The position numbers and the translations under genes are program-made. The notes beneath the pieces are model-generated. The model searched no databases, was not told where the DNA came from, and was given only the letters and a program-made list of their open reading frames with translations. A stretch of 64,000 nucleotides of DNA from Sediminibacterium goheungense (GTDB lineage: Bacteria > Bacteroidota > Bacteroidia > Chitinophagales > Chitinophagaceae). Where the stretch lies: assembly GCF_004361915.1 (NCBI RefSeq), contig NZ_SNWP01000010.1, positions 1,016,050-1,080,049 on the forward strand. Reading direction: 5' to 3'. Positions 2,971 to 61,340 of the stretch are shown piece by piece (position 1 is the first letter of the stretch; each line of letters begins with the position of its first letter).

Positions 2971-5900
2971 TTAGTTTTTACCCAGAACAATAACAGTTGC
3001 ATTATTCCGGGCGAGGACATACGCTTTCTTATTATTGATCATAATAGGTTTTGCATTGCGTACCTGCCCGGTGATGGGTGGTATTGCAGATGAGGATATT
3101 TTCAACCCCTTCCCTTTTTCATACGATAACAGGTTTCCAAAATCTGCATCCTGTCTGCCGATTTCAACATTATTGGCGAAGAAGTTTCCCATAGTTAGCC
3201 ATTGCGGTTGCGTGCCGTTATCAATTTTCACCACAGATCTTAACTGGCTAAACTGTGTTTCATATGGAAGTGCCGATGCCGTAAACTTCATATTACCCTC
3301 ATTCAGTAATAAGAGATGATCAAAACAATTGGCTTCTAACTGATAGGCTTTTTCAAATTTCTGCGGTGCAAACAATTGTTTAAGCTCTGCTTTTGCAAAA
3401 TCAGCAGCATATAAATATTTTTTCTTCAGGAGCGGAATCGATTTTTCCAACTGCAGTTTACTTGACAATGGCATTTCTGTACCATTTACATAATAAGTCA
3501 TAATCTGCTCCACTCTCGAGTTATCATCAAAATCGTTCATGTACATCCTTACAGGATATTTTTCTGATGCTTTTACCCGACTGTTGGCTCCGAAATTACC
3601 AGCTATAAGGTCAACATCACCATCGCCATCTATATCATCCGCATACACTGTTTGCCACCATCCTTTTTTGGCTGTAATCGTTTGCTGTACATATTGATTA
3701 CCCTGTTTTACCAATGCCTCTATACCACCCCATACATAAGATAGCAACAGATCTTTTTGTCCGTCTTTATTCAGGTCAACCCATTGTGCTGAACTGATAA
3801 AACCTCCCGGCTGTATCAATGAACTGGCAAATTCAGTTGTAACATCTTTGAAATTACCATATCCATCGTTGAGGAATAAATAAGAACGCGCGGGCATTCC
3901 ATAAGCATAGGTAACCGATCGACCGGCAAAGAATAAATCAATATTACCGTCGCCATTGATATCATGGGCAATTACTTTACTCTGTGTATTCATACCCGGC
4001 GGAAAAGCAAAATCTTTTTTACGCAGATTACCTCTGCCATCATTCATGTATAGAAGGGGTTGCAGGTGCTCATCTTCTCCATAGTATTCATTACCACCAC
4101 TGGCAATCACGAGGTCCATGGCCTGATCATTGTTCACATCAACCCAGATAGCATCTACATTTTCCCACATGGAATCCTTATCCATAGCAGGTTGCACTGA
4201 ACGAATAAAAGTTCCATTTTTATTTTGGATATACAAGGCATTTCTATACCCTTTCGAAGAACCCACAAATACATCTTCCAAACCATCGTGGTTAATATCT
4301 GCCACAGCCAGTGCAGGCCCCTCTGTTGAAATCATATGCGGAATCAATGGCTCTCTGTCAAATTCATTGAACAGGTTTTCTTCGTGACGATAGTTGATAC
4401 CAGTTGATGCTGTTATATCCTGTAGCACTGTTTGCGGAGACGTTAGCTGCTGATTCAACCTGTTGAAATTAAATGCAGGCAATCCTTTTTTATACGCTAT
4501 TTCTCCAACACTACCTTTCGTCAACTGTACCGACTGATAAGTTCTGTCGGGCCATATCAGCAACGCAGAGTCTACGGTTATATTTTTGAGTCCGGCCTGC
4601 AATGGCAGCTGCATACTGGATAAAAAACCATGTACCGGAAAATTTTCATAACTATATACCTGCCCTTCACCGTAGACCAGTAATTTGGTGCCAATGGCCA
4701 TTGTATTAGTACTATCGCCTTTTAATATCAGCTTTGCGAAATCCTTCTGCTCCTTCTTTGTATTGGTTTTGTTTTCATACACCAGTACCGGATCGTTAAT
4801 ATTGTTGACCACCAGATCGAGATCGCCATCATTATCTAAATCGGCATATACAGAACCATTTGAAAAAGTAGGCAGGTTATTATCAATACTATCAGTAAGA
4901 TTATCAAACGACAAATTCCCTTTGTTACGGTAAAACTGATTGGGAATTTTAATTTCCGGAAACTTGTTGATGAGTGCTATGTCTTTATCCTGAAGGGTAT
5001 TGTTTTTTAATTTCTCCTGCAGTTCCCCACCCGATACATAATTGATGTAATCGATATCATTCATGCGTTTGGGAATACCATTCGATACAAAGAGATCTTT
5101 TAATCCGTCATTATCAAAATCCATCCATAAAGAAGCCCAGCTCCAGTCGGTAGCATGAATACCTGCATACTGACCTATTTCACTAAAATGCCCATTTTTT
5201 CTGTTGTACTGAAGATTATTTCTCGCATACTGATGGGTATAGCCATATTGTAATTTCTGCTGGTAGATATTATAATCATCTTCTGCCATTGAGCGCTTCA
5301 GCATATAAGGATCGTATGGCAACATGTCCATAGAAATAATTTCAGGATAGGCATCGTTATTGATATCGGCAACATCTACTCCCATACTGAACTGACTGGT
5401 ATGCATTAACTGTTCGGCTCCCTTTTCTGCAAAAGTTCCGTTCTGCTGGTTGATATAGAGGTAATCATTTTCATGGAAATCATTTCCCACATAAATATCC
5501 GGCCACCCATCCAGGTTAATATCTGCTACGGTTACACCCAGTCCATACCCTATTTTACTACCATTGATACCAGCTTTTTGGGTAACATTGGTAAATACTG
5601 TTTTTTGTTTCCCATCTGCTCCCTGCTGCTGGTCGTTTCTGTATAAACGCTGACCCGCCAGTGAGTCGTAGGTATTGATAAAAAGATCTCTGGGTGCATA
5701 ATTACCATCATGGTTTACAGAATGGTTCAGTAAAAACATATCCAGGTCTCCATCACCATCATAATCCAGAAAAGCGGCCTGTGTACTGAAGCCTGAAAAA
5801 TCCAGGCCATATTCAGCGGCTCTGTCTTCGTAGACCGGAATCTTATTGGCTCCAATACCCGTACAAACCAATAACTGATTCTTTCCTTTCAGCGTTTTGT

Positions 5901-9738: not shown

Positions 9739-9835
9739 CTTCCTTTCTCTCCTTCTCCCTGAAAAAGAATGCTTACCAATAATGAAGTCCGAATAATCGA
9801 ATTTTTTTTGCAGGGAGAAGGGTAGAAAGGGAGGG
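9739..9835 (-). promoter_or_regulatory. Long pyrimidine/purine-arm inverted repeat between susD terminator and CRTAC1 genes
   Basis: CTTCCTTTCTCTCCTTCTCCCTG … 48 nt … CAGGGAGAAGGGTAGAAAGGGAGG. Could fold in mRNA or DNA. Confidence 0.4.
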
Positions 9836-15871: not shown

Positions 15872-16000
15872 GCAGAAAGTGAGTAGTCAGTAGTGAGTAG
15901 TGAGTAGTGAGTAAAAAGCTATATCTTTATTGATACCCTACTGACTACTGACTACTGACTACTGACTACTGACTACTGACTACTCACTACTCACTCTCTG
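15872..16000. repeat. Heptad-repeat hairpin element, (GTGAGTA/GTCAGTA)n arm – loop – (TACTGAC/TACTCAC)n arm
   Basis: Left arm has 5 heptads, right arm 8. Sits between convergent gene ends (LacI regulator / Gfo oxidoreductase). Confidence 0.8.
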
Positions 16001-30867: not shown

Positions 30868-31048
30868 TGTAAAAACTTATAAAAGAACGGATGAAGCATC
30901 CATAAAAGCTTGCCTGACGGCAAGAAGGATAATATACTTTGTTATCAAACCAGAAGTGTGTTTAATAAAGCACCTTAGTGCGGAGGTAGTAACCATCTGT
31001 ATGCTATTGCTGCAAAGTGTAATGTCCTCCATTAATCTGCTGTATGTT

Positions 31049-31196
31049 GGGGGTTCGAGTCCTCCTTCCGGTAATACCGGAATAGCTCAACAGGTTAGAG
31101 CATCAGCCTTTATGTGGGTTCGAGTCCCACTTCCGACTTTGTCGGAATAGCTAAATGGTAAAGCACTACATAAAGATGTAGAAGAAGTACATCACT
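31049..31196 (+). other. Three tandem tRNA-gene remnants, none intact
   Basis: Fragment 1 (31049-31073): T-arm GGGGG-TTCGAGT-CCTCC plus acceptor 3' strand. Fragment 2 (31076-31138): acceptor 5' strand, D-arm (TAGCTCAACAGGTTAGAGC), half anticodon arm, then T-arm GTGGG-TTCGAGT-CCCAC and acceptor 3' strand. Fragment 3 (31141-31196): GTCGGAATAGCTAAATGGTAAAGCA… with a degenerate anticodon/T region. Confidence 0.6.
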
Positions 31197-41935: not shown

Positions 41936-41965
41936 GTTGTTTCTTATTTCCGCAAAGATAGAGAA

Positions 41966-42130
41966 TCGTGAATTGTCAATTGTCAATTGTGAATGGTGAA
42001 GAAAGGTGAGTAGTGAGTAGTCAGTAGTGAGTAAAGAAAAGTGAGTAATTTGACGGGCTACATTCAGCACTGACTAGTGACTACTGACTACTAACTACTG
42101 ACTACTCACTACTCACTCCCCTCACTGCTC
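41966..42130. repeat. Heptad-repeat hairpin element of the same family, with leader GTGAATTGTCAATTGTCAATTGTGAATGGTGAA
   Basis: Between the tonB-2 stop and the mnmE start. Loop GAGTAATTTGACGGGCTACATTCAGCACTGAC is shared with the copy at 43006-43126. Confidence 0.8.
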
Positions 42131-43005: not shown

Positions 43006-43126
43006 AGAGTGAGTAAAGAAAAGTGAGTAGTCAGTAGTGAGTAAAAAAAACGAGTAATTTAGCGGGCTATATTCAGCACTGACTACTGACTACTGACTAC
43101 TGACTACTGACTACTCACTACTCACA
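43006..43126. repeat. Heptad-repeat hairpin element of the same family
   Basis: Between tandem tonB paralogs. Loop near-identical to the 41966-42130 copy. Confidence 0.8.
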
Positions 43127-43157
43127 AAAAAGCCACCCCGATACACAGAGTGGCTTT
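43125..43157 (-). terminator. Rho-independent terminator immediately after tonB paralog 1
   Basis: On the minus strand: AAGCCAC-loop-GTGGCTT then TTTTTT. Confidence 0.6.
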
Positions 43158-43180
43158 TGAAAATTTATCAGGAAAAGAGA

Positions 43181-44630: not shown

Positions 44631-44687
44631 AACGGTAGAATTTAGTTTTCGTGAGTAATTTGTTTACTTACTACTGATCAACAGTAT

Positions 44688-49195: not shown

Positions 49196-49215
49196 AACAG
49201 GATTTACCTCTGTTA

Positions 49216-49250
49216 AAAAGGCGCAGTAAATATTTACTGCGCCTTTTTTA
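49216..49250. terminator. Bidirectional terminator AAAAAGGCGCAGTAAA-TAT-TTACTGCGCCTTTTTT
   Basis: Perfect 13-bp stem flanked by A-run and T-run. 20 nt after the metalloprotease stop. Confidence 0.85.
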
Positions 49251-49395
49251 ATTTGGAAATTTTTTAATTTGGAAATTTGGAAATGAAAATATTGCTGATG
49301 ATCTGATAGAGTATCTACGGTAATTAAAAACAACGCAGTTGTTTCATTCTTCACATTTCCAAATTTCCAAATTGTCTCATTTTCAAATTATCCTT
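49250..49395. repeat. Octamer-unit hairpin element, (AATTTGRA)n … (TYCCAAAT)n
   Basis: Arms at 49250-49291 and 49353-49391. Downstream of the metalloprotease terminator. Confidence 0.7.
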
Positions 49396-50145: not shown

Positions 50146-50153
50146 GGGAACAG

Positions 50154-50713
50154 AGAAATAAGAAATAAGGAATAAGGAATAAGGAATAAGGAATAAGGAA
50201 TAAGAAATTAGGGATGAGACGATTTACGGGTATTATTCTTTTTAGCAGTGTCAATACTTTTGAGGAATATAAATACGAGTTCTGAACATTCCTGTCTTAG
50301 TGTTGACAGATTAATTGGAATTTTCCAGTTCAATTTTTCTATAATAGCCAGACAATTTCTTGTTTCGCGCAATTCTTTGAGTGCGACTTTCATCTTATGA
50401 ATGAAGTCTGTTCGTGATTCCGCTGATTGAGCCTCTCCATAATGTAAAGCCGGGGCTGATCCACTTCTGGTCAATTGTCCTCCCAAATGATTTCCAGCAA
50501 ATGTCCTTGGAAGTTTCTCTGCTGCCTGAATACAACTAACTGCAAATTGAATCAACCTGTCTTCAAGATCAAACTTATATCTGGTTTCCATATAACTGAT
50601 TTATCATACAAATTTCAACCTCATACCCACAAAAAAATAGCGTATTTATACGGTGTACAAATACGCTACTCATATTACTTTCTTATTCCTTATTTCCTAT
50701 TCCTTATTCCTCT
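50154..50713. mobile_element. IVS-like mini-element: four-helix-bundle gene bounded by inverted (AATAAGG)n / (CCTTATT)n heptad arrays
   Basis: Left arm 50154-50211 (AATAAGG x ~7). Right arm 50676-50713 (CCTTATT x ~5). Wedged between the stops of two convergent genes. Confidence 0.45.
50208..50591 (-). CDS. Four-helix-bundle protein (23S rRNA intervening-sequence protein family, TIGR02436-like)
   Basis: 127 aa. Helical IVS-protein-like sequence (…KMKVALKELRETRNCLAIIEKL…). Lies between long heptad inverted repeats. Confidence 0.65.
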   Translation of the reverse strand: METRYKFDLEDRLIQFAVSCIQAAEKLPRTFAGNHLGGQLTRSGSAPALHYGEAQSAESRTDFIHKMKVALKELRETRNCLAIIEKLNWKIPINLSTLRQECSELVFIFLKSIDTAKKNNTRKSSHP

Positions 50714-50715
50714 GT

Positions 50716-52179
50716 TTACAATGCCTCCATTACAATTCTCCGTACTTCTTTCATCGCAACTCGCTCCTGCACCATGCTGTCTCTATGGCGGATGGTTACG
50801 GTGCCGTCTTCTTTGGTTTGGTGGTCGATGGTTACACAGAAAGGAGTGCCGATGGCATCCTGCCGGCGGTAACGTTTACCGATGGCATCTTTTTCTTCGT
50901 AGAAACATTTGAAATGCGGTTTGCATTCATTCAATAATTCTTTGGCTATTTCAGGTAATCCCTCTTTTTTCATCAGGGGAAGAATCGCCAGTTTATTGGG
51001 TGCAATCTTTGCAGGAATACGCATTACCACACGGCTGTCTGTTGAACCATCTTCTTTGGTAATGGTTTCCTCATCATAAGCATGGCTCATTACCAGCAGG
51101 AACATACGATCGAGACCAATAGAGGTTTCTACTACATACGGAATATAATTGCCATAAGGCTTACCTGTTGCCGGATCAATATCAGCATCAAAATACTGTT
51201 GCTTTTTCTTACTGTATTCCTGATGACTCTTCAGGTCAAAATCCGTTCTGCTATGAATACCTTCCACTTCTTTAAAACCAAAAGGAAATTCATATTCAAT
51301 ATCCAGTGCCGCATCTGCATAATGCGCCAGTTTTACGTGGTCGTGGTAACGATATTTTTCTGCGGGTATACCCAGACTGGTATGCCATTTCATCCGCTCT
51401 TCTTTCCAGAAGTTATACCATTCCATCTGGGTACCGGGGCGTACAAAAAACTGCATTTCCATCTGTTCAAACTCACGCATACGGAAAATAAACTGACGGG
51501 CCACAATCTCATTTCGGAATGCCTTACCGGTTTGTGCAATACCAAAAGGTATTTTCATCCTGGCTGTTTTCTGCACATTGAGGAAGTTTACAAAAATACC
51601 CTGTGCCGTTTCCGGCCTCAGGTAAATGGTATCCGCATCTTCCGCTACAGAACCCAGCTGGGTAGAGAACATGAGGTTAAACTGGCGTATATCTGTCCAG
51701 TTAGCCGTACCACTTACACTACACACAATTTTATGGTCGTTCATCAGTTGTTTCAGGCCTGCAAAATCTTCTGCTGCCAGCAACTGATCCATCGATGCCA
51801 GCAATGCATCTGCACCGGCTGCATCGCCGTTTTCTCTTAACTGATCAGCTTTTGCTTCCAGCAAATGATCTACCCGGTATCTTTTTTTACTGTCTTTATT
51901 GTCGATCATCGGGTCACTGAAATTGTCTACGTGACCGCTTGCTTTCCAGGTGGTGGGGTGCATAAAAATAGCCGCGTCGATACCCACGATATTGTCGTGC
52001 ATCTGTGTCATGCTTCTCCACCAGTAATCGCGGATATTCTTCTTCAGCTCTGCCCCGTACGGACCGTAATCATATACCGCACTTAACCCATCATAAATTT
52101 CACTACTGGGAAATACAAATCCATACTCTTTGGCATGCGAAATAATAGCCTGGAAACGATTGTCTTGTTGTATGCTCAT
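50716..52179 (-). CDS. glyQS: Glycine--tRNA ligase (dimeric class II GlyQS form)
   Basis: 487 aa. N-terminus QDNRFQAIISHAKEYGFVFPSSEIYDGLSAVYDYGPYG. Class II motifs. Confidence 0.9.
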   Translation of the reverse strand: MSIQQDNRFQAIISHAKEYGFVFPSSEIYDGLSAVYDYGPYGAELKKNIRDYWWRSMTQMHDNIVGIDAAIFMHPTTWKASGHVDNFSDPMIDNKDSKKRYRVDHLLEAKADQLRENGDAAGADALLASMDQLLAAEDFAGLKQLMNDHKIVCSVSGTANWTDIRQFNLMFSTQLGSVAEDADTIYLRPETAQGIFVNFLNVQKTARMKIPFGIAQTGKAFRNEIVARQFIFRMREFEQMEMQFFVRPGTQMEWYNFWKEERMKWHTSLGIPAEKYRYHDHVKLAHYADAALDIEYEFPFGFKEVEGIHSRTDFDLKSHQEYSKKKQQYFDADIDPATGKPYGNYIPYVVETSIGLDRMFLLVMSHAYDEETITKEDGSTDSRVVMRIPAKIAPNKLAILPLMKKEGLPEIAKELLNECKPHFKCFYEEKDAIGKRYRRQDAIGTPFCVTIDHQTKEDGTVTIRHRDSMVQERVAMKEVRRIVMEAL

Positions 52180-52204: not shown

Positions 52205-52335
52205 GGGGAAGCTGTGAGCCCCGAGCTATGAGCGTTGAGCTGTAAAATTTCATTATCTATTTTAATTCATCATCAGATTTCCCTTAAACCACCATCAAGC
52301 TCAAGGCCTGCAGCTCATAGCTCACAGCCTCCCTG
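52205..52335. repeat. Inverted repeat built from GAGCT/TGAGC units, in the divergent glyQS / aminopeptidase promoter region
   Basis: Arms AAGCTGTGAGCCCCGAGCTATGAGCGTTGAGCT and AGCTCAAGGCCTGCAGCTCATAGCTCACAGCCT. Confidence 0.6.
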
Positions 52336-53805: not shown

Positions 53806-53915
53806 AATTTGAAAATTTGGAAATTTGGAAATTTGAAAATGGTGGTTATTATAACCAGAACGTTATCGAAAGGTTAGGCCTTATGACATTTTCAAATTTC
53901 CAAATTTTCAAATTA
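53806..53915. repeat. Octamer-unit hairpin element, (AATTTGRA)n … (TTYCAAAT)n, same family as 49250-49395
   Basis: Between the convergent pepP-like and mazG-like genes. Right arm abuts the mazG stop. Confidence 0.7.
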
Positions 53916-57358: not shown

Positions 57359-57427
57359 TTAGTGAGCAGTGAGCAGTGAGTAGTGAGTAAAATCTCCTAC
57401 TCACTACTCATTACTCACTACTCACTT
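57359..57427. repeat. Heptad-repeat hairpin (GTGAGCA/GTGAGTA)x4 – AAATCTCC – (TACTCAC)x4, followed by TTTTA
   Basis: Directly after the stop of the di-heme peroxidase gene. Near-perfect stem. Confidence 0.8.
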
Positions 57428-57433
57428 TTAACG

Positions 57434-58939
57434 ATGAGTAGTATTAAGAAATTAGCAGGACAAACTTTGTGGTATGGTGTGCCCACCATTGCCGTTCGTT
57501 TTTTGGGCTATGCATTGAACATCCTGTTATTCTGGTGGTATGAACCGAGCAGTACTGCTGGTATTACACAGATTTATGCTGCTATTCCTTTTTTGAACAT
57601 TCTGTTTACTTATGGACTTGAAACCAGCTATTTCAGGTTTATACAGGATCATGATAAAACAAAAGTGTTCAATACATTTTTAACGTCCACCATTATCACT
57701 ACGGTTCTCTTCACAGGCTTTTTATTGTGGCAGGCACAGGCTGTGGCTGGCTTGATCGATTTTGCAGATCATCCTGAATATATACGTTGGATGGCGTGGA
57801 TACTTTTTTTCGATACACTATCTGTTATTCCTTTTGCAAAATTAAGACAGGAAGGAAGGCCACGCATGTATGCATTTATCAAAGCATCCGGTATTGTGGT
57901 CAATGTTTTGCTGGTATTGTTTTTTATTGGCACCTGCCCAAAACTATACCGGGAAAACCCTGAAAGCATATGGTTATCATTTTATAATCCCTTGATAGGT
58001 ATCGGTTATTATATCATTGCCAATGTGGTTGCCAGCATATTTACATTGTTATTACTTACTAAAGAGTTCCGGGGTTTCAGGTTTGCCTTCGATTTTGCGC
58101 TTTGGAAGACGGTCATGAAATATTCGTATCCATTAATTATTGTAGGGCTTGGTGGAATGATTAACGAAATGCTGAGCAGGTTGGTGTATACAAGGGTATT
58201 GGATTTACCACGCAAGGAAGAATTACATCAACTGGGTATTTTCGGAGCCAATTACAAAGTGGCTGTACTGATCACCATTTTTATACAGGTGTTCAAGATG
58301 GGGGCGGAACCTTTTTTCTTTAACCAATCAAAAGAAGAAAATGCACCACGGACTTATGCAAGGGTGATGAAATTTTTTGTGATCGCCTGCGCATTTATGT
58401 GGCTGGCCATTGTGGTGAATCTTCCTATAATTATGCGGTTTGCTTACGGCTCTAATGCTGCTGCCTATGGAGAAGGCATTTCGATTGTTCCAATACTGGC
58501 CATGGGTAGTGTATTTCTGGGTATTTATTATAACCTGAGCGTATGGTACAAGCTCACTAACAAAACGCTCACAGGTGCATGGATCACGCTGGCTGGTGCC
58601 GCTATCACCATACTGCTGAATATATGGTGGATTCCTTTATTCGGATATACAGGCAGTGCCTGGGCAACTTTTGCATGTTATGCTTTTATGATGATCATTA
58701 GTTATCAACTCGGCCAGAAACATTACCGCATTCCGTATGCCAGCAAAAAACTGATTGCCTATCTGGTGATCGTTACCCTTCTTTACCTGATACACCAACT
58801 CTTTGTATATTTTCTACCACAATTATGGTTAGGAACGGCTTTCGGTTTATTACTCCTAGGCGTTTTTGCCTGGTTTATTTTACTGGTGGAAAGAAAAGAG
58901 TTTCAGAAAATGCCCGTAATCGGTAAATACATCAAATAA
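57434..58939 (+). CDS. Polysaccharide biosynthesis/oligosaccharide flippase (Wzx/MOP family) membrane protein
   Basis: ~14 predicted TM helices. N-terminus SIKKLAGQTLWYGVPTI. ORF's first 17 codons lie in a repeat element and were trimmed. Confidence 0.65.
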   Translation: MSSIKKLAGQTLWYGVPTIAVRFLGYALNILLFWWYEPSSTAGITQIYAAIPFLNILFTYGLETSYFRFIQDHDKTKVFNTFLTSTIITTVLFTGFLLWQAQAVAGLIDFADHPEYIRWMAWILFFDTLSVIPFAKLRQEGRPRMYAFIKASGIVVNVLLVLFFIGTCPKLYRENPESIWLSFYNPLIGIGYYIIANVVASIFTLLLLTKEFRGFRFAFDFALWKTVMKYSYPLIIVGLGGMINEMLSRLVYTRVLDLPRKEELHQLGIFGANYKVAVLITIFIQVFKMGAEPFFFNQSKEENAPRTYARVMKFFVIACAFMWLAIVVNLPIIMRFAYGSNAAAYGEGISIVPILAMGSVFLGIYYNLSVWYKLTNKTLTGAWITLAGAAITILLNIWWIPLFGYTGSAWATFACYAFMMIISYQLGQKHYRIPYASKKLIAYLVIVTLLYLIHQLFVYFLPQLWLGTAFGLLLLGVFAWFILLVERKEFQKMPVIGKYIK

Positions 58940-58944
58940 AAAAT

Positions 58945-59265
58945 ATGCTACCGGCCAAAAAATTTGCAGACCTCGCATTATCCATGGCCGATACAGATAC
59001 AGTACCACATTTCGACAAACAGGCTTTCAGAAAACATACAAAGATTTTTGCTACGCTGCATCCTGTAACACTGGTGGCCATGGTGAAATTAACACCTGAA
59101 CAGCAATCTGTTTATCTGCAATTACCTGGTGAAATATTTTATCCCGCTTCTGGCGCCTGGGGCAAAGCAGGCTGTACACACTGTAACCTGAAAATGATCA
59201 ATACGAAGCTTGCAAAAGAAGTGCTGAGACTGGCATGGGGGAATATTCATCTGAAGAAAAAATAA
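58945..59265 (+). CDS. MmcQ/YjbR-family protein
   Basis: 106 aa. Length and composition typical of the family. Weak call. Confidence 0.4.
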   Translation: MLPAKKFADLALSMADTDTVPHFDKQAFRKHTKIFATLHPVTLVAMVKLTPEQQSVYLQLPGEIFYPASGAWGKAGCTHCNLKMINTKLAKEVLRLAWGNIHLKKK

Positions 59266-59432
59266 TCGGGATTTTATTACCGGACTGAAGTCTGGTGCTG
59301 GGTTAAAGAAACCTAATTAAGTATAGCTTATCCCAAAAACATAGCATACCCGAACCTCAGAAAATAGAATATTGCTTTCCTGAAATATCAGAGACCCGTT
59401 CCTTGCACCGGACTTCAGTCCGGTGATAAAAA

Positions 59433-60572
59433 TCAAATCAGTTGTTTTTGAAAAATCCTGAATCGTTTATACAACTCCCCTCCCAACTTCTCACATTCGG
59501 CCCGCATGGTAGTATTCGTTTCCAGAATCAGGTGGCTGTCCATATGTGTCATTCCTCTCGCAGAAGCTGATTGTATCAATGCCATGGCCATATACACATC
59601 CAGCCCCTTTCCTCTGTATTTTTCTTTCACAGCGCCTAATAAAAGATTGAGTTGCTTACTTTTTCGCATAGCTGAGAAAATATGAAAAAGTCCGAATGGA
59701 AATAATTTTCCTTTGGCTTTTTGTAAGCCCATACTCAAGTCGGGCATAGCTACTACAAAGGATAACAAATTGCCGTTCTCATCAATCATCGCTTTTACAA
59801 AAGATGGGTTCAGGATCGGCAGGTACTGCTTTGCCATTTTTTGTATTTCAGCATCCGACATAGGTACAAACCCAAATAAGGGTGTATAGGTTTCGTTGAT
59901 CAACTGAAAAACCGGTACGATATAGGGTTTGAGCGCTTTTCTGCTCTTGAATTCCAGCAGTTGAAGTTTTGGATTGCGGCCAATTCTCCCTAATATACGC
60001 TCATACAAAGCAGGTAATTGCTCCGGTATGGGAATCCGATACGAAACACAATCGATATACTTCTCATAGCCAAGCGATGCAAGTAAAGCAGGCATATAAG
60101 CCGGATTTGATGGTGTTGCAATCACAGGAAGATGTTCCAGTCCTTGAACCTGAAAGCCTTGCGGGTCTTTATCAGAAAAACCAAATGGACCAATCAGTTT
60201 ATCCATGCCGTGTTCCCTGGCCCATGCTTCTACGGTTTTGATGAGCAGCGATGCAACCGCCGGATCATCGATACAATCCATCTGAAAAAAGCGGGCTGTT
60301 TTTTCCTTGTGTATACGGTTATAGGCATGATGAATGATGCCCATAATTCTTCCAACAGCTAAATTTTTCCTATATACTATCCATTTTTCTGTAACAGCGT
60401 CCTTGTAAGCAGGATTTTTTAAAGGATCATGAAACTGATACTCATCCACATACAGCGGTGGTACCCAGCGGGGAATATTTTCATAGATGCTGGCAGGCAA
60501 ATGAATAAATGCCCTCAGCTCAGAAGGGCCATTAATTTTCTCAATGCGTAAATGCGTATCAAGCATCACCAA
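59433..60572 (-). CDS. Uncharacterised protein, possibly GNAT-fold N-acetyltransferase family
   Basis: 379 aa. N-terminal FIHLPASIYENIPRWVPPL motif resembles a Bacteroidota GNAT-like family. Weak. Confidence 0.35.
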   Translation of the reverse strand: MVMLDTHLRIEKINGPSELRAFIHLPASIYENIPRWVPPLYVDEYQFHDPLKNPAYKDAVTEKWIVYRKNLAVGRIMGIIHHAYNRIHKEKTARFFQMDCIDDPAVASLLIKTVEAWAREHGMDKLIGPFGFSDKDPQGFQVQGLEHLPVIATPSNPAYMPALLASLGYEKYIDCVSYRIPIPEQLPALYERILGRIGRNPKLQLLEFKSRKALKPYIVPVFQLINETYTPLFGFVPMSDAEIQKMAKQYLPILNPSFVKAMIDENGNLLSFVVAMPDLSMGLQKAKGKLFPFGLFHIFSAMRKSKQLNLLLGAVKEKYRGKGLDVYMAMALIQSASARGMTHMDSHLILETNTTMRAECEKLGGELYKRFRIFQKQLI

Positions 60573-60596: not shown

Positions 60597-61073
60597 ATGG
60601 CAGAAGACTTAAGCATCATCAAAGGTGATAAACGCACACAGTACGAATCACTGATACCGCAGATAAAAGCATTAGTGGAAGGAGAAAAGGATCTGGTGGC
60701 CAACCTTGCCAATATAGCAGCCGCTTTAAAAGAGCAGTTCGGCTGGTTCTGGGTGGGTTTTTACTGGGTTAAAAATGAAGAGTTGGTATTGGGACCTTTT
60801 CAGGGACCCGTTGCCTGCACACGTATCCGTAAAGGTCGTGGAGTTTGTGGCACCAGCTGGGCAGAAGCAAAAACATTGATCGTTCCCGACGTTGAAAAAT
60901 TTCCCGGACATATTGCCTGCAGCAGTCTTTCCAAATCAGAAATCGTGGTACCTATCATCAGAAATGGCGATTTACTTGGCGTATTAGACGTAGACGCCAG
61001 CGAACTGGATCAATTTGATGAAACAGATAAGTTGTACCTGGAGCAGATAGTTGCAATGGTGAATGGTGAATAG
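60597..61073 (+). CDS. GAF-domain protein (free methionine-R-sulfoxide reductase-like)
   Basis: 158 aa with conserved Cys residues in fRMsr-like positions (PVACTRIRKGRGVCGTSW). Last five codons are encoded by the downstream heptad repeat. Confidence 0.65.
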   Translation: MAEDLSIIKGDKRTQYESLIPQIKALVEGEKDLVANLANIAAALKEQFGWFWVGFYWVKNEELVLGPFQGPVACTRIRKGRGVCGTSWAEAKTLIVPDVEKFPGHIACSSLSKSEIVVPIIRNGDLLGVLDVDASELDQFDETDKLYLEQIVAMVNGE

Positions 61074-61159
61074 TGAGTAGTGAGTAGTGAGTAGATTTAA
61101 CTTATCTAATTAAATGTATTCTTTACTCACTACTGACTACTGACTACTCACTACTCACT
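61056..61159. repeat. Heptad-repeat hairpin (GTGAATG GTGAATA GTGAGTA…) – loop – (TACTCAC TACTGAC…)
   Basis: Overlaps the last codons of the GAF gene and is followed by TTTTCTCC. Confidence 0.8.
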
Positions 61160-61340
61160 TTTCTCCATCTCAATTTTTTTACTTAGCTTTGCATTATACA
61201 TATACTCTCTCTACACACGACCGATTTCCTTCCGTGACAAAGTTCATCAGTCTTTATAACAGGTAGCATAAGCACCCACGTAGGAAGGTTATATAACAAC
61301 TGAGCGATTTCAGTTGTGTTTTATTTAAAAATTTATTCCA

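Follow-up and report, generated by a model that had tools for sequence, protein, structure and literature searches.

The five hairpins described here, named E1 to E5, are built from tandem 7-nt units and lie in a 64-kb stretch of the Sediminibacterium goheungense chromosome (Bacteroidota), hereafter called the window. They are members of a widespread class, the bacterial palindromic microsatellites, rather than a family confined to this genome or ordinary terminators. Our leading reading, which we hold tentatively, is that they are resident intergenic palindromic heptamer microsatellites, remodelled by slippage and copying, that most likely act as RNA hairpins at the ends of transcripts. Such a role at transcript ends appears the most plausible one, judging from the comparisons below. 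The window encodes MnmE, two TonB paralogs, ExbB/ExbD, RhlE and a LacI-type regulator. The MnmE homologs pointed to Sediminibacterium, and the flippase encoded at 57434-58939 was 100% identical to an S. goheungense protein. A cyanobacterial origin, suggested by the heptads and by a G+C content of 41.6%, was rejected on this gene content and these homologs and on the lack of tandem cyanobacterial repeat heptamers. Copies were counted within these 64 kb.

A prediction made from the sequence alone had placed five GTGAGTA/GTCAGTA ... TACTGAC/TACTCAC hairpins in the window, and all five were present at the coordinates that it gave. They follow the same plan, with a left arm of GTGAGTA, GTCAGTA, GTGAGCA or GTGAATG units, a loop of 8 to 34 nt, and a right arm of TACTGAC or TACTCAC units. 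Each arm has 3 to 8 units set head to tail. The heptad unit itself has no self-complementarity, and the two arms were convergent in all five elements. The elements and two neighboring features are as follows.

E1: 15872-16000, unstranded; left arm of 5 units (15879-15913), loop of 25 nt, right arm of 8 units (15939-15994).
E2: 41968-42117, unstranded; left arm of 4+1 units (42006-42047), loop at 42048-42068, right arm of about 7 units (42069-42117).
E3: 43009-43125, unstranded; left arm of 1+3 units (43009-43043), right arm of about 7 units (43078-43125).
tonB1 terminator: 43126-43159, minus strand; canonical GC stem with a T run, which abuts E3 and is not a member of the family.
E4: 57362-57425, unstranded; left arm of 4 units (57362-57389), loop of 8 nt, right arm of 4 units (57398-57425); the most regular copy.
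E5: 61059-61158, unstranded; left arm of 5 units (61059-61093), loop of 30 nt, right arm of 5 units (61124-61158).
Mini hairpin: 44651-44674, unstranded; a single unit per arm (GTGAGTA ATTTGTT TACTTAC) between two exbD genes, possibly a seed or relic of the family.

E1 occupies the entire convergent spacer between the stop of the LacI-type gene (15871) and that of a GFO-type oxidoreductase gene (16001). The spacer that holds E2 is bounded by the tonB2 stop (42122, minus strand) and the mnmE start (41935). E2 begins 4 nt past that stop, includes four further GTGAATT/GTCAATT units (41968-41995) and extends to the mnmE promoter region, where the extra units adjoin a TAnnTTTG-like box (41950-41960, minus strand). 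E3 is found between the canonical terminator of tonB1, kept in 7/7 relatives compared, and the tonB2 start (42952). E4 follows the stop of a MauG-like gene (57303) and ends 8 nt before the ATG of the flippase gene (57434). The left arm of E5 (GTGAATG, GTGAATA and three GTGAGTA units) holds the TAG stop of a GAF gene (61071-61073), and 25 nt separate the end of its right arm from a TAnnTTTG-like box, TAGCTTTG (61184-61191), upstream of rhlE. The expected position at gene 3' ends therefore held in general but not for E3, which is 55 nt past the tonB1 stop and behind a terminator, or for E4, which is 58 nt past the preceding stop; nor does E5 come right after a stop, since it contains one.

In E1 the variable base of the units read GCGGG in the left arm and GGGGGGCC in the right arm, and comparable patterns were seen in E2, E3 and E5. 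GTGAGTA was amplified on the left and TACTGAC on the right in E1 to E3, which leaves one G.G or C.C mismatch per unit. The single mismatch per unit expected from the first look at the sequence was accordingly found in E1, E2, E3 and E5, but not in E4, where all detected units pair at the variable base (left GGGG, right CCC); the fourth right unit of E4, TACTCAT, deviates at another position. In the four mismatched elements the variable base was G on the plus strand in both arms, which is the source of the G.G mismatches, and the L161 orthologs (L-numbers are labels of comparison loci or contigs from other genomes) showed the same plus-strand G in both arms. Replication-strand skew was rejected as its cause, because the skew of the window is of the opposite sign (GC skew, -0.03; GC3, -0.05).

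The family is real by count and by folding. Two consecutive GTSAGTA units with at most one mismatch gave 39 matches in the window, all of them within E1 to E5, against 0.07 expected from 100 shuffles. In the folding check proposed with the original prediction, either strand of the five elements gave an RNA minimum free energy between -41 and -64 kcal/mol, with z scores from -5.9 to -9.8. As single-stranded DNA, they folded at -21 to -30 kcal/mol (z, -5.3 to -8.2), and 0/200 shuffles were as stable. In either form the product was an imperfect hairpin of about 30 to 50 bp. An Rfam scan of the window at the gathering score placed no family at the elements; its sole match was a tRNA model at 31076-31138.

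We then compared orthologous spacers. Syntenic regions came from eight related assemblies or contigs (MnmE identity, 88 to 99%; flippase identity, 87 to 95%), and eight sites were compared in up to seven relatives per site: E2, E3, E4, E5, the glyS-fnr spacer, and the sites of three palindromes with other units (O1, O2 and D1, listed below). Nearly every relative carried a tandem-unit palindrome at these sites, and the units differed. At the E sites, both the number and the sequence of the units varied by genome among GTGAGTA, GTGAATG, GTGAAAG and GTGAGAC. The units at E3 were GTSAGTA in the window, L161, L162 and L247, GTGAAAR in L243, GTGAAAR together with GTGAGAC in L244, and GTGAATK together with GTGAGTA in L245. 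Those at E4 were GTGAGYA in the window and L337, the octamer GTCCGAAA in L338, and a different palindrome in L339. The glyS-fnr spacer held AAATAGG units in L244, the window and L162, and GCTTTTA/GCCATTA units in L243, L245, L338 and L339. In L162 and L247 (site E2) and in L339 (site E4), the palindrome was of another type, CACAGAG. None of the relatives compared had an empty orthologous site; all carry a palindromic element at the E1 to E5 sites. Rather than being recent insertions, the palindromes have long resided in particular spacers in Sediminibacterium.

Where the units differ between species, the two arms have changed in concert, and native arms paired far more stably than arms swapped across species (-71 versus -38 kcal/mol at E2, -68 versus -43 at E3, -47 versus -26 at E4, and -39 versus -21 at glyS-fnr). 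Changes confined to one arm were also observed. Between L162 and L247 at E3, the left arm differed by two to three units and the right arms were identical, a change of the slippage type that had been suggested for the family; one-arm changes were likewise seen between the window and L161 and between the window and a 99% strain, L246. In L246 (1-92; MnmE 99% identical), heptad number and type differed from those at 41968-41995 of the window, between E2 and the mnmE TATCTTTG box, and these heptads occupy the -33 region of the putative mnmE promoter. Each arm gains and loses units independently; with time one unit variant gives way to another, and the two arms come to hold complementary units.

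Copies within one genome resembled each other more than they resembled their orthologs. E2 and E3 were identical in 103/119 columns (87%), loop included; the near-identical loop noticed at the outset was recovered as a common region of 42 nt with 36/42 positions identical. Both elements read GTGCTGAAT in the window and GTGTTGAAT in L161, so that within each genome they have derived bases in common. The unit type tracked the genome and not the site, with YTTTCAC at E2, E3 and E5 in the L243/L338 lineage and TACTSAC in the window. This pattern of unit turnover is concerted evolution, and gene conversion between arrays may be its cause. Two other explanations for the likeness of E2 and E3 were rejected: a relic of the tonB tandem duplication, as the adjoining tonB paralogs are 63% identical and the elements 87%, and a loop that moves as a module, as the loop core is confined to those two sites, in the window and in L161.

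We also examined how widely the heptad occurs. Three consecutive GTSAGTA units were found in at least 118 stretches in species genomes and, among the matches listed, in Cyanobacteria, Bacteroidota, Acidobacteriota, Proteobacteria and Planctomycetota. Complete GTSAGTA hairpins were present in Pyrinomonadaceae, Mesorhizobium, Chelativorans, Rhodanobacteraceae, Cyclobacteriaceae and other Chitinophagaceae. The idea of a genome-specific family was therefore not borne out: GTSAGTA hairpins occur in other Sediminibacterium, Chitinophagaceae, Acidobacteriota and Alpha- and Gammaproteobacteria, and the class is known from Xanthomonas. In viral contigs, GTSAGTA gave 42 stretches, and three permuted control heptads gave 39, 42 and 7. 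Since control heptads were about as frequent, it is not the heptad sequence that is special but the architecture, and we rejected the view of GTSAGTA as a special, horizontally spread sequence.

These results also bear on transposition. Five copies in 64 kb, an identity between E2 and E3 well above that of their flanks, and the same heptad hairpin in distant phyla would suit non-autonomous elements resembling miniature inverted-repeat transposable elements, with the heptad arrays as terminal inverted repeats and a transposase encoded elsewhere. However, no target-site duplications were found at the elements, the longest direct word common to both flanks being 2 to 3 nt, and this finding together with the lack of empty orthologous sites in any relative compared disfavors transposition. 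Moreover, the loops of E1, E4 and E5 are unrelated, the loop core of E2 and E3 is found at those two sites only, and equally widespread control heptads mean that the cross-phylum occurrence needs no transfer. Transposition is, in our view, extremely improbable.

A composite form of the arrays was seen in a Chitinophagaceae contig, L057, where two arms, at 2100-2260 and 4200-4360, are inverted copies 2.1 kb apart and bracket tpiA and a nucleotidyltransferase-like gene. Each of these arms consists of GATCTTTGA units, five GTGAGTA units, a unique spacer and CAACCTC units.

The same architecture was found in the window with other units, namely, AATAAGG, AATTTGGA and GAGCTNT. Our detector of arrays and palindromes is orientation blind; the arrays that it reported have a period of 5 to 8 in the window, and the palindromes of the survey described below have a period of 7 or 8. 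It returned 16 window arrays of period 5 to 8, with 14 of period 7 or 8 and 12 in inverted pairs. About 9 of the 21 window spacers of at least 100 nt hold a tandem-unit palindrome. The window contained 6 to 8 palindromic elements, compared with 3 in a 908-kb background of other loci, mostly from more distant Bacteroidota. Metagenome RhlE matches, which were only 59 to 74% identical and had no orthologous sites, served as background DNA. The elements with other units are as follows.

O1: 49249-49390, unstranded; octamer palindrome with the unit AATTTGGA / TCCAAATT.
AATAAGG/CCTTATT pair: 50149-50716, unstranded; eight AATAAGG units (50157-50212) and an inverted CCTTATT array (50676-50716).
D1: 52211-52329, unstranded; GAGCTNT heptad palindrome (GCTGTGA, GCTATGA ... 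CTCATAG, CTCACAG) in the divergent glyS/peptidase spacer.
O2: 53806-53914, unstranded; octamer palindrome filling the convergent peptidase M24/MazG spacer.

O1 lies between a canonical terminator (49215-49249), conserved in all relatives, and an fnr-like gene. Its site was kept in eight relatives, with a single arm in L245. The arms of O2 co-varied across species, with GTGCT in one arm and AGCAC in the other. Both arms of D1 were kept in L338, L339, L243 and L245, and L337 had the right arm only. The loop of the AATAAGG hairpin holds a gene (50208-50591, minus strand) with its terminator and its own promoter region. The product belongs to PF05635 (23S rRNA intervening-sequence protein/Avd-like; E, 4.8e-11). 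In L244 (1553-1664), the AATAAGG arms form a gene-less hairpin of 110 nt. L161 (1105-1710) has a PF05635 copy that is 68% identical, in the opposite orientation, and flanked by ACAGAGA / CTCTGTTT arrays; the region compared in L162 was 1271-1834, and the gene was missing at this site in L243, L245, L338 and L339. The PF05635 gene appears to behave as a cassette, moving into or out of hairpin loops. As a separate observation, O1 and O2, whose octamer is AATTTGRA, have a common small inner hairpin, AACAACGCAGTTGTT-like. AATTTGRA palindromes were also found in a distant Chitinophagaceae contig (L166, 8893-9272), where the unit and a spacer of about 55 nt are repeated three times.

This diversity of units matters for the possibility that the arrays are phased sites for a sequence-specific DNA- or RNA-binding protein, such as a regulator, a nucleoid- or partition-type protein or a domesticated transposase, whose specificity drifts between species while the heptads co-evolve. 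An invariant G-T-(G/C)-A core followed by three variable bases in all variants at the E1 to E5 sites, an arrangement that is always convergent, and units that go by genome (GTGAAAR/YTTTCAC at E2, E3 and E5 in the L243/L338 lineage, GTSAGTA in the window) are what such a protein would be expected to leave. Yet unrelated unit families (AATAAGG, AATTTGGA, GAGCTNT and GTCCGAAA) produce this architecture within the same genomes, which would call for several such proteins; a stop codon could also account for the conserved TGA, and no candidate protein was identified. We consider protein sites very unlikely.

The arms showed a strong strand polarity. We surveyed about 340 loci from many phyla, together with the window, and obtained 92 palindromic arrays with 46 distinct units. 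The 5' arm had more G than C in 84 of them, fewer in 2 and equal numbers in 6 (84/86 informative cases), a count to be read with the caveat that most loci were fetched by G-rich heptad patterns. Both strands were searched, the detector ignores orientation, and many of the recovered units differed from those searched for. Counted by distinct unit, G exceeded C in the 5' arm in 39 cases and fell below it in 2; purines exceeded pyrimidines in the 5' arm in 87/92 arrays. In other genomes, when GTSAGTA had an exact partner array no more than 300 nt away, GTSAGTA came first in 13/13 cases. A strand-polar rule of this kind fits a constraint on RNA or on single strands; a constraint purely on double strands would not produce polarity.

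A second rule concerned stop codons, which the arrays abut or overlap. A stop triplet occurred in the 5' arm but not in the 3' arm in 53 cases, and the reverse was seen in 6. Neither 7 nor 8 is divisible by 3, so a unit that contains a stop triplet places stops in every reading frame over a run of three units. Stop codons were rejected as the full cause of polarity, since 9/10 of the 5' arms without a stop still had more G than C; G-richness is thus the more general feature. When the window and its orthologs were set aside, none of 73 elements lay inside an open reading frame (ORF), and the flanking genes were in tandem for 39, convergent for 16 and divergent for 11. The distance from the end of an inward-pointing ORF to the edge of the array had a median of 5 nt, and the ORF ended within the array in 29/75 cases.

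Both rules could be combined in a bolder proposal, that tandem-heptad palindromes form a cross-phylum, transcription-polar module at gene ends, a cassette that first stops translation in any frame and then stops or protects the transcript. Here, the G-rich 5' arm would give stops to genes arriving from both sides, and the C-rich arm would close the hairpin. Length would be free to change without harm to genes, and active copying between arms and loci would keep them complementary. We regard this extension as quite unlikely.

The original prediction had favored strong, possibly bidirectional, terminators, and the elements do share features with intrinsic terminators, being post-stop hairpins that are symmetric on both strands and have a G-rich arm 5' and a C-rich arm 3', the polarity of the canonical terminators of the window. 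E1, E2, E5, O2 and the glyS-fnr element begin 0 to 8 nt past stops in spacers that contain no other terminator, and short T runs follow E4 and E5. Primary bidirectional intrinsic termination of the flanking genes is nevertheless highly improbable. Unlike terminators, the elements have no short GC-rich stem and no T tract, and genuine terminators are found in the same spacers. Their stems are AT rich, 30 to 50 bp long and mismatched, and their tails have at most 4 T, with none of 5 T or more in 8. A scan of 40-60 kb for stems with T runs listed the glyS terminator and not E2, E3 or E4. Conserved canonical terminators make E3 and O1 redundant, the flippase ATG comes 8 nt past the end of E4, and D1, a member of the class, lies between divergent genes. 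Termination was therefore dropped as the main role.

For the reading that we favor, a mechanism can be outlined. Units would be gained and lost by replication slippage, and arms and loci would be homogenized by recombination, gene conversion or template switching. The product that is selected or tolerated would be a strand-symmetric RNA hairpin bordering transcription units. It may protect 3' ends, damp read-through and insulate neighbors, an effect resembling that of repetitive extragenic palindromic (REP) sequences, and would be a back-up terminator at best; canonical terminators, where present, would do the primary job. In enterobacteria, REP sequences serve in 3'-end protection, insulation or back-up termination. 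Strand polarity, arm covariation and stop adjacency fit a hairpin that matters in RNA entered from either side.

Several points weigh against this reading. The E1 site of L244 sets a GTSAGTA arm opposite a TTTCACG arm, O1 of L245 is one armed, and L338 carries a nine-unit array without a partner; such mismatched and one-armed states indicate that arm pairing is not strictly required. With E3 and O1 behind terminators, E4 just before a start codon and D1 between divergent genes, a single function at 3' ends cannot cover all of the elements. Polarity and stop adjacency could also have a function-free origin, through stop-codon seeding or replication bias. The RNA-level role is an inference from sequence patterns.

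The same points suit functionless, self-perpetuating palindromic microsatellites that slip and expand until selected sequence is met and whose arms stay alike through template switching or gene conversion. The elements fill any free spacer, be it convergent, tandem or divergent, they adjoin conserved canonical terminators, and one-armed and mismatched states occur. Permuted heptads as common in viral contigs make the unit sequence nothing special, and no function has been found for the counterpart in Xanthomonas. Arrays seeded at stop codons and expanding into the spacer would explain most of the facts. However, the 84/86 polarity and the covariation of the arms through full turnover would require an added mechanistic bias, and the hairpins persist at their sites across the 88-99% relatives despite total replacement of their sequence. 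We judge a complete lack of function to be somewhat unlikely.

Other repeats were noticed alongside the heptad elements. A second family consists of long CTCTGCGGT...ACCGCAGAG / CACAGAG-type palindromes, found in the window at 1790-1893 and 2884-2964. Palindromes of this type were also present at the E2 sites of L162, L244 and L247, at the E4 site of L339 and at 11506-11584 of L339. In L244, one such palindrome is nested within a heptad-hairpin loop. The same palindrome is flanked in L162 and L247 by single GTGAGAC / GTCTCAC units. At 9739-9835 of the window, a pyrimidine/purine palindrome of 97 nt, CTTCCTTTCTCTCC ... GGGAGAAGGGTAGAAAGG, adjoins a canonical terminator. It has no tandem units, and its polarity is opposite, with the pyrimidine arm first. 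The convergent spacer between YjbR and a 377-amino-acid protein (59254-59449) contains a small ACCGGACTGAAGTCCGGT hairpin twice, as inverted copies separated by 106 nt. In L337 (11832-12225) this hairpin occurs four times, and L338 has just a 22-nt spacer there. A run of tRNA-like fragments with GGTTCGAGTCC T-arm motifs occupies 30980-31170. Within it, 31076-31138 scored 35.6 bits with the Rfam tRNA model, and ARAGORN called no tRNA.

Heptamers are the commonest long simple-sequence repeats in bacteria and have been described in cyanobacteria, Xanthomonas and Beggiatoaceae. The lineage studied here provides a clean comparative series, with the same sites in genomes related at 88 to 99%, complete turnover and co-varying arms. 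It makes three questions testable: whether hairpins are selected at the RNA level, what agent copies one arm to the other, and whether the stop-rich arm shields gene ends from slippage. From a practical point of view, the elements break short-read assemblies, as illustrated by the contig of L246 that ends within E2, and they risk being mistaken in annotation for CRISPR-like, REP or terminator features.

A literature search returned no paper on these elements in Sediminibacterium, and we therefore compared them with known systems. Likeness to REP sequences, bacterial interspersed mosaic elements (BIMEs) and REPINs, which had been suggested for the family, extends to abundant extragenic hairpin repeats at gene ends, often in inverted pairs. 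Each REP unit is by itself an imperfect palindrome of 20 to 40 nt that bears a GTAG or CGTC tag and has a partner transposase, the REP-associated tyrosine transposase (RAYT) (Di Nocera et al. 2013, PMC3733652). The heptads of E1 to E5 are not palindromic and so lack what defines REP; a hairpin forms only between two arrays. GTAG occurs at every junction of GTGAGTA with a following G and is missing from the orthologous GTGAAAG, GTGAATG and GTGAGAC variants. No RAYT (Y1 transposase) gene was noticed among the ORFs examined in the 64-kb window.

TAACTGA heptamers are known from Beggiatoaceae, Cyanobacteria and five Bacteroidetes as direct repeats, with one inverted in 170; their arrays mostly end just upstream of start codons and have been read as sites of a translational regulator (MacGregor 2015, PMC4679880). 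Like our elements, they are intergenic heptamer arrays that are patchy across phyla, have other heptamers nearby and differ between close relatives at each site. Unlike them, E1 to E5 are inverted pairs. Tandem TAACTGA, CCCCAGT, TTGGTCA or CAACAGT was not found within the window. The last three are the cyanobacterial short tandemly repeated repetitive (STRR) heptamers, which Mazel et al. reportedly described in 1990 as tandem and dispersed in intergenic DNA. The STRR heptamers differ from E1 to E5 in taxon and units, and inverted pairing is no part of their definition.

The convergent GGGAATC heptamer pairs of Xanthomonas are the closest precedent. There, 183 to 186 arrays per genome form 70 to 75 pairs that are always convergent; about 90% are intergenic, at a mean of 28 nt from the upstream ORF, and sites persist between species while length and sequence vary. 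The authors proposed slippage and identified no function (Rehm et al. 2015, PMC4692102). Both systems have heterogeneous 7-nt arrays with a conserved core (GGGANTN there, GTGANNN here), convergent pairing, an intergenic position nearer to the end of the upstream ORF than to the following start, and persistent sites with variation. They differ in phylum and unit, and E1 to E5 have no G3 tracts, with only 0 or 1 GGG per element and hence no quadruplex potential, which places them outside the quadruplex-forming subtype. Nearly all arrays are paired in the window, against about 40% in Xanthomonas. Complete unit replacement with co-varying arms, and genes or palindromes nested in loops, were seen here and have not been reported for Xanthomonas. 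The class itself is thus already known, and the present analysis extends it with a comparative series and with rules on polarity and stop codons.

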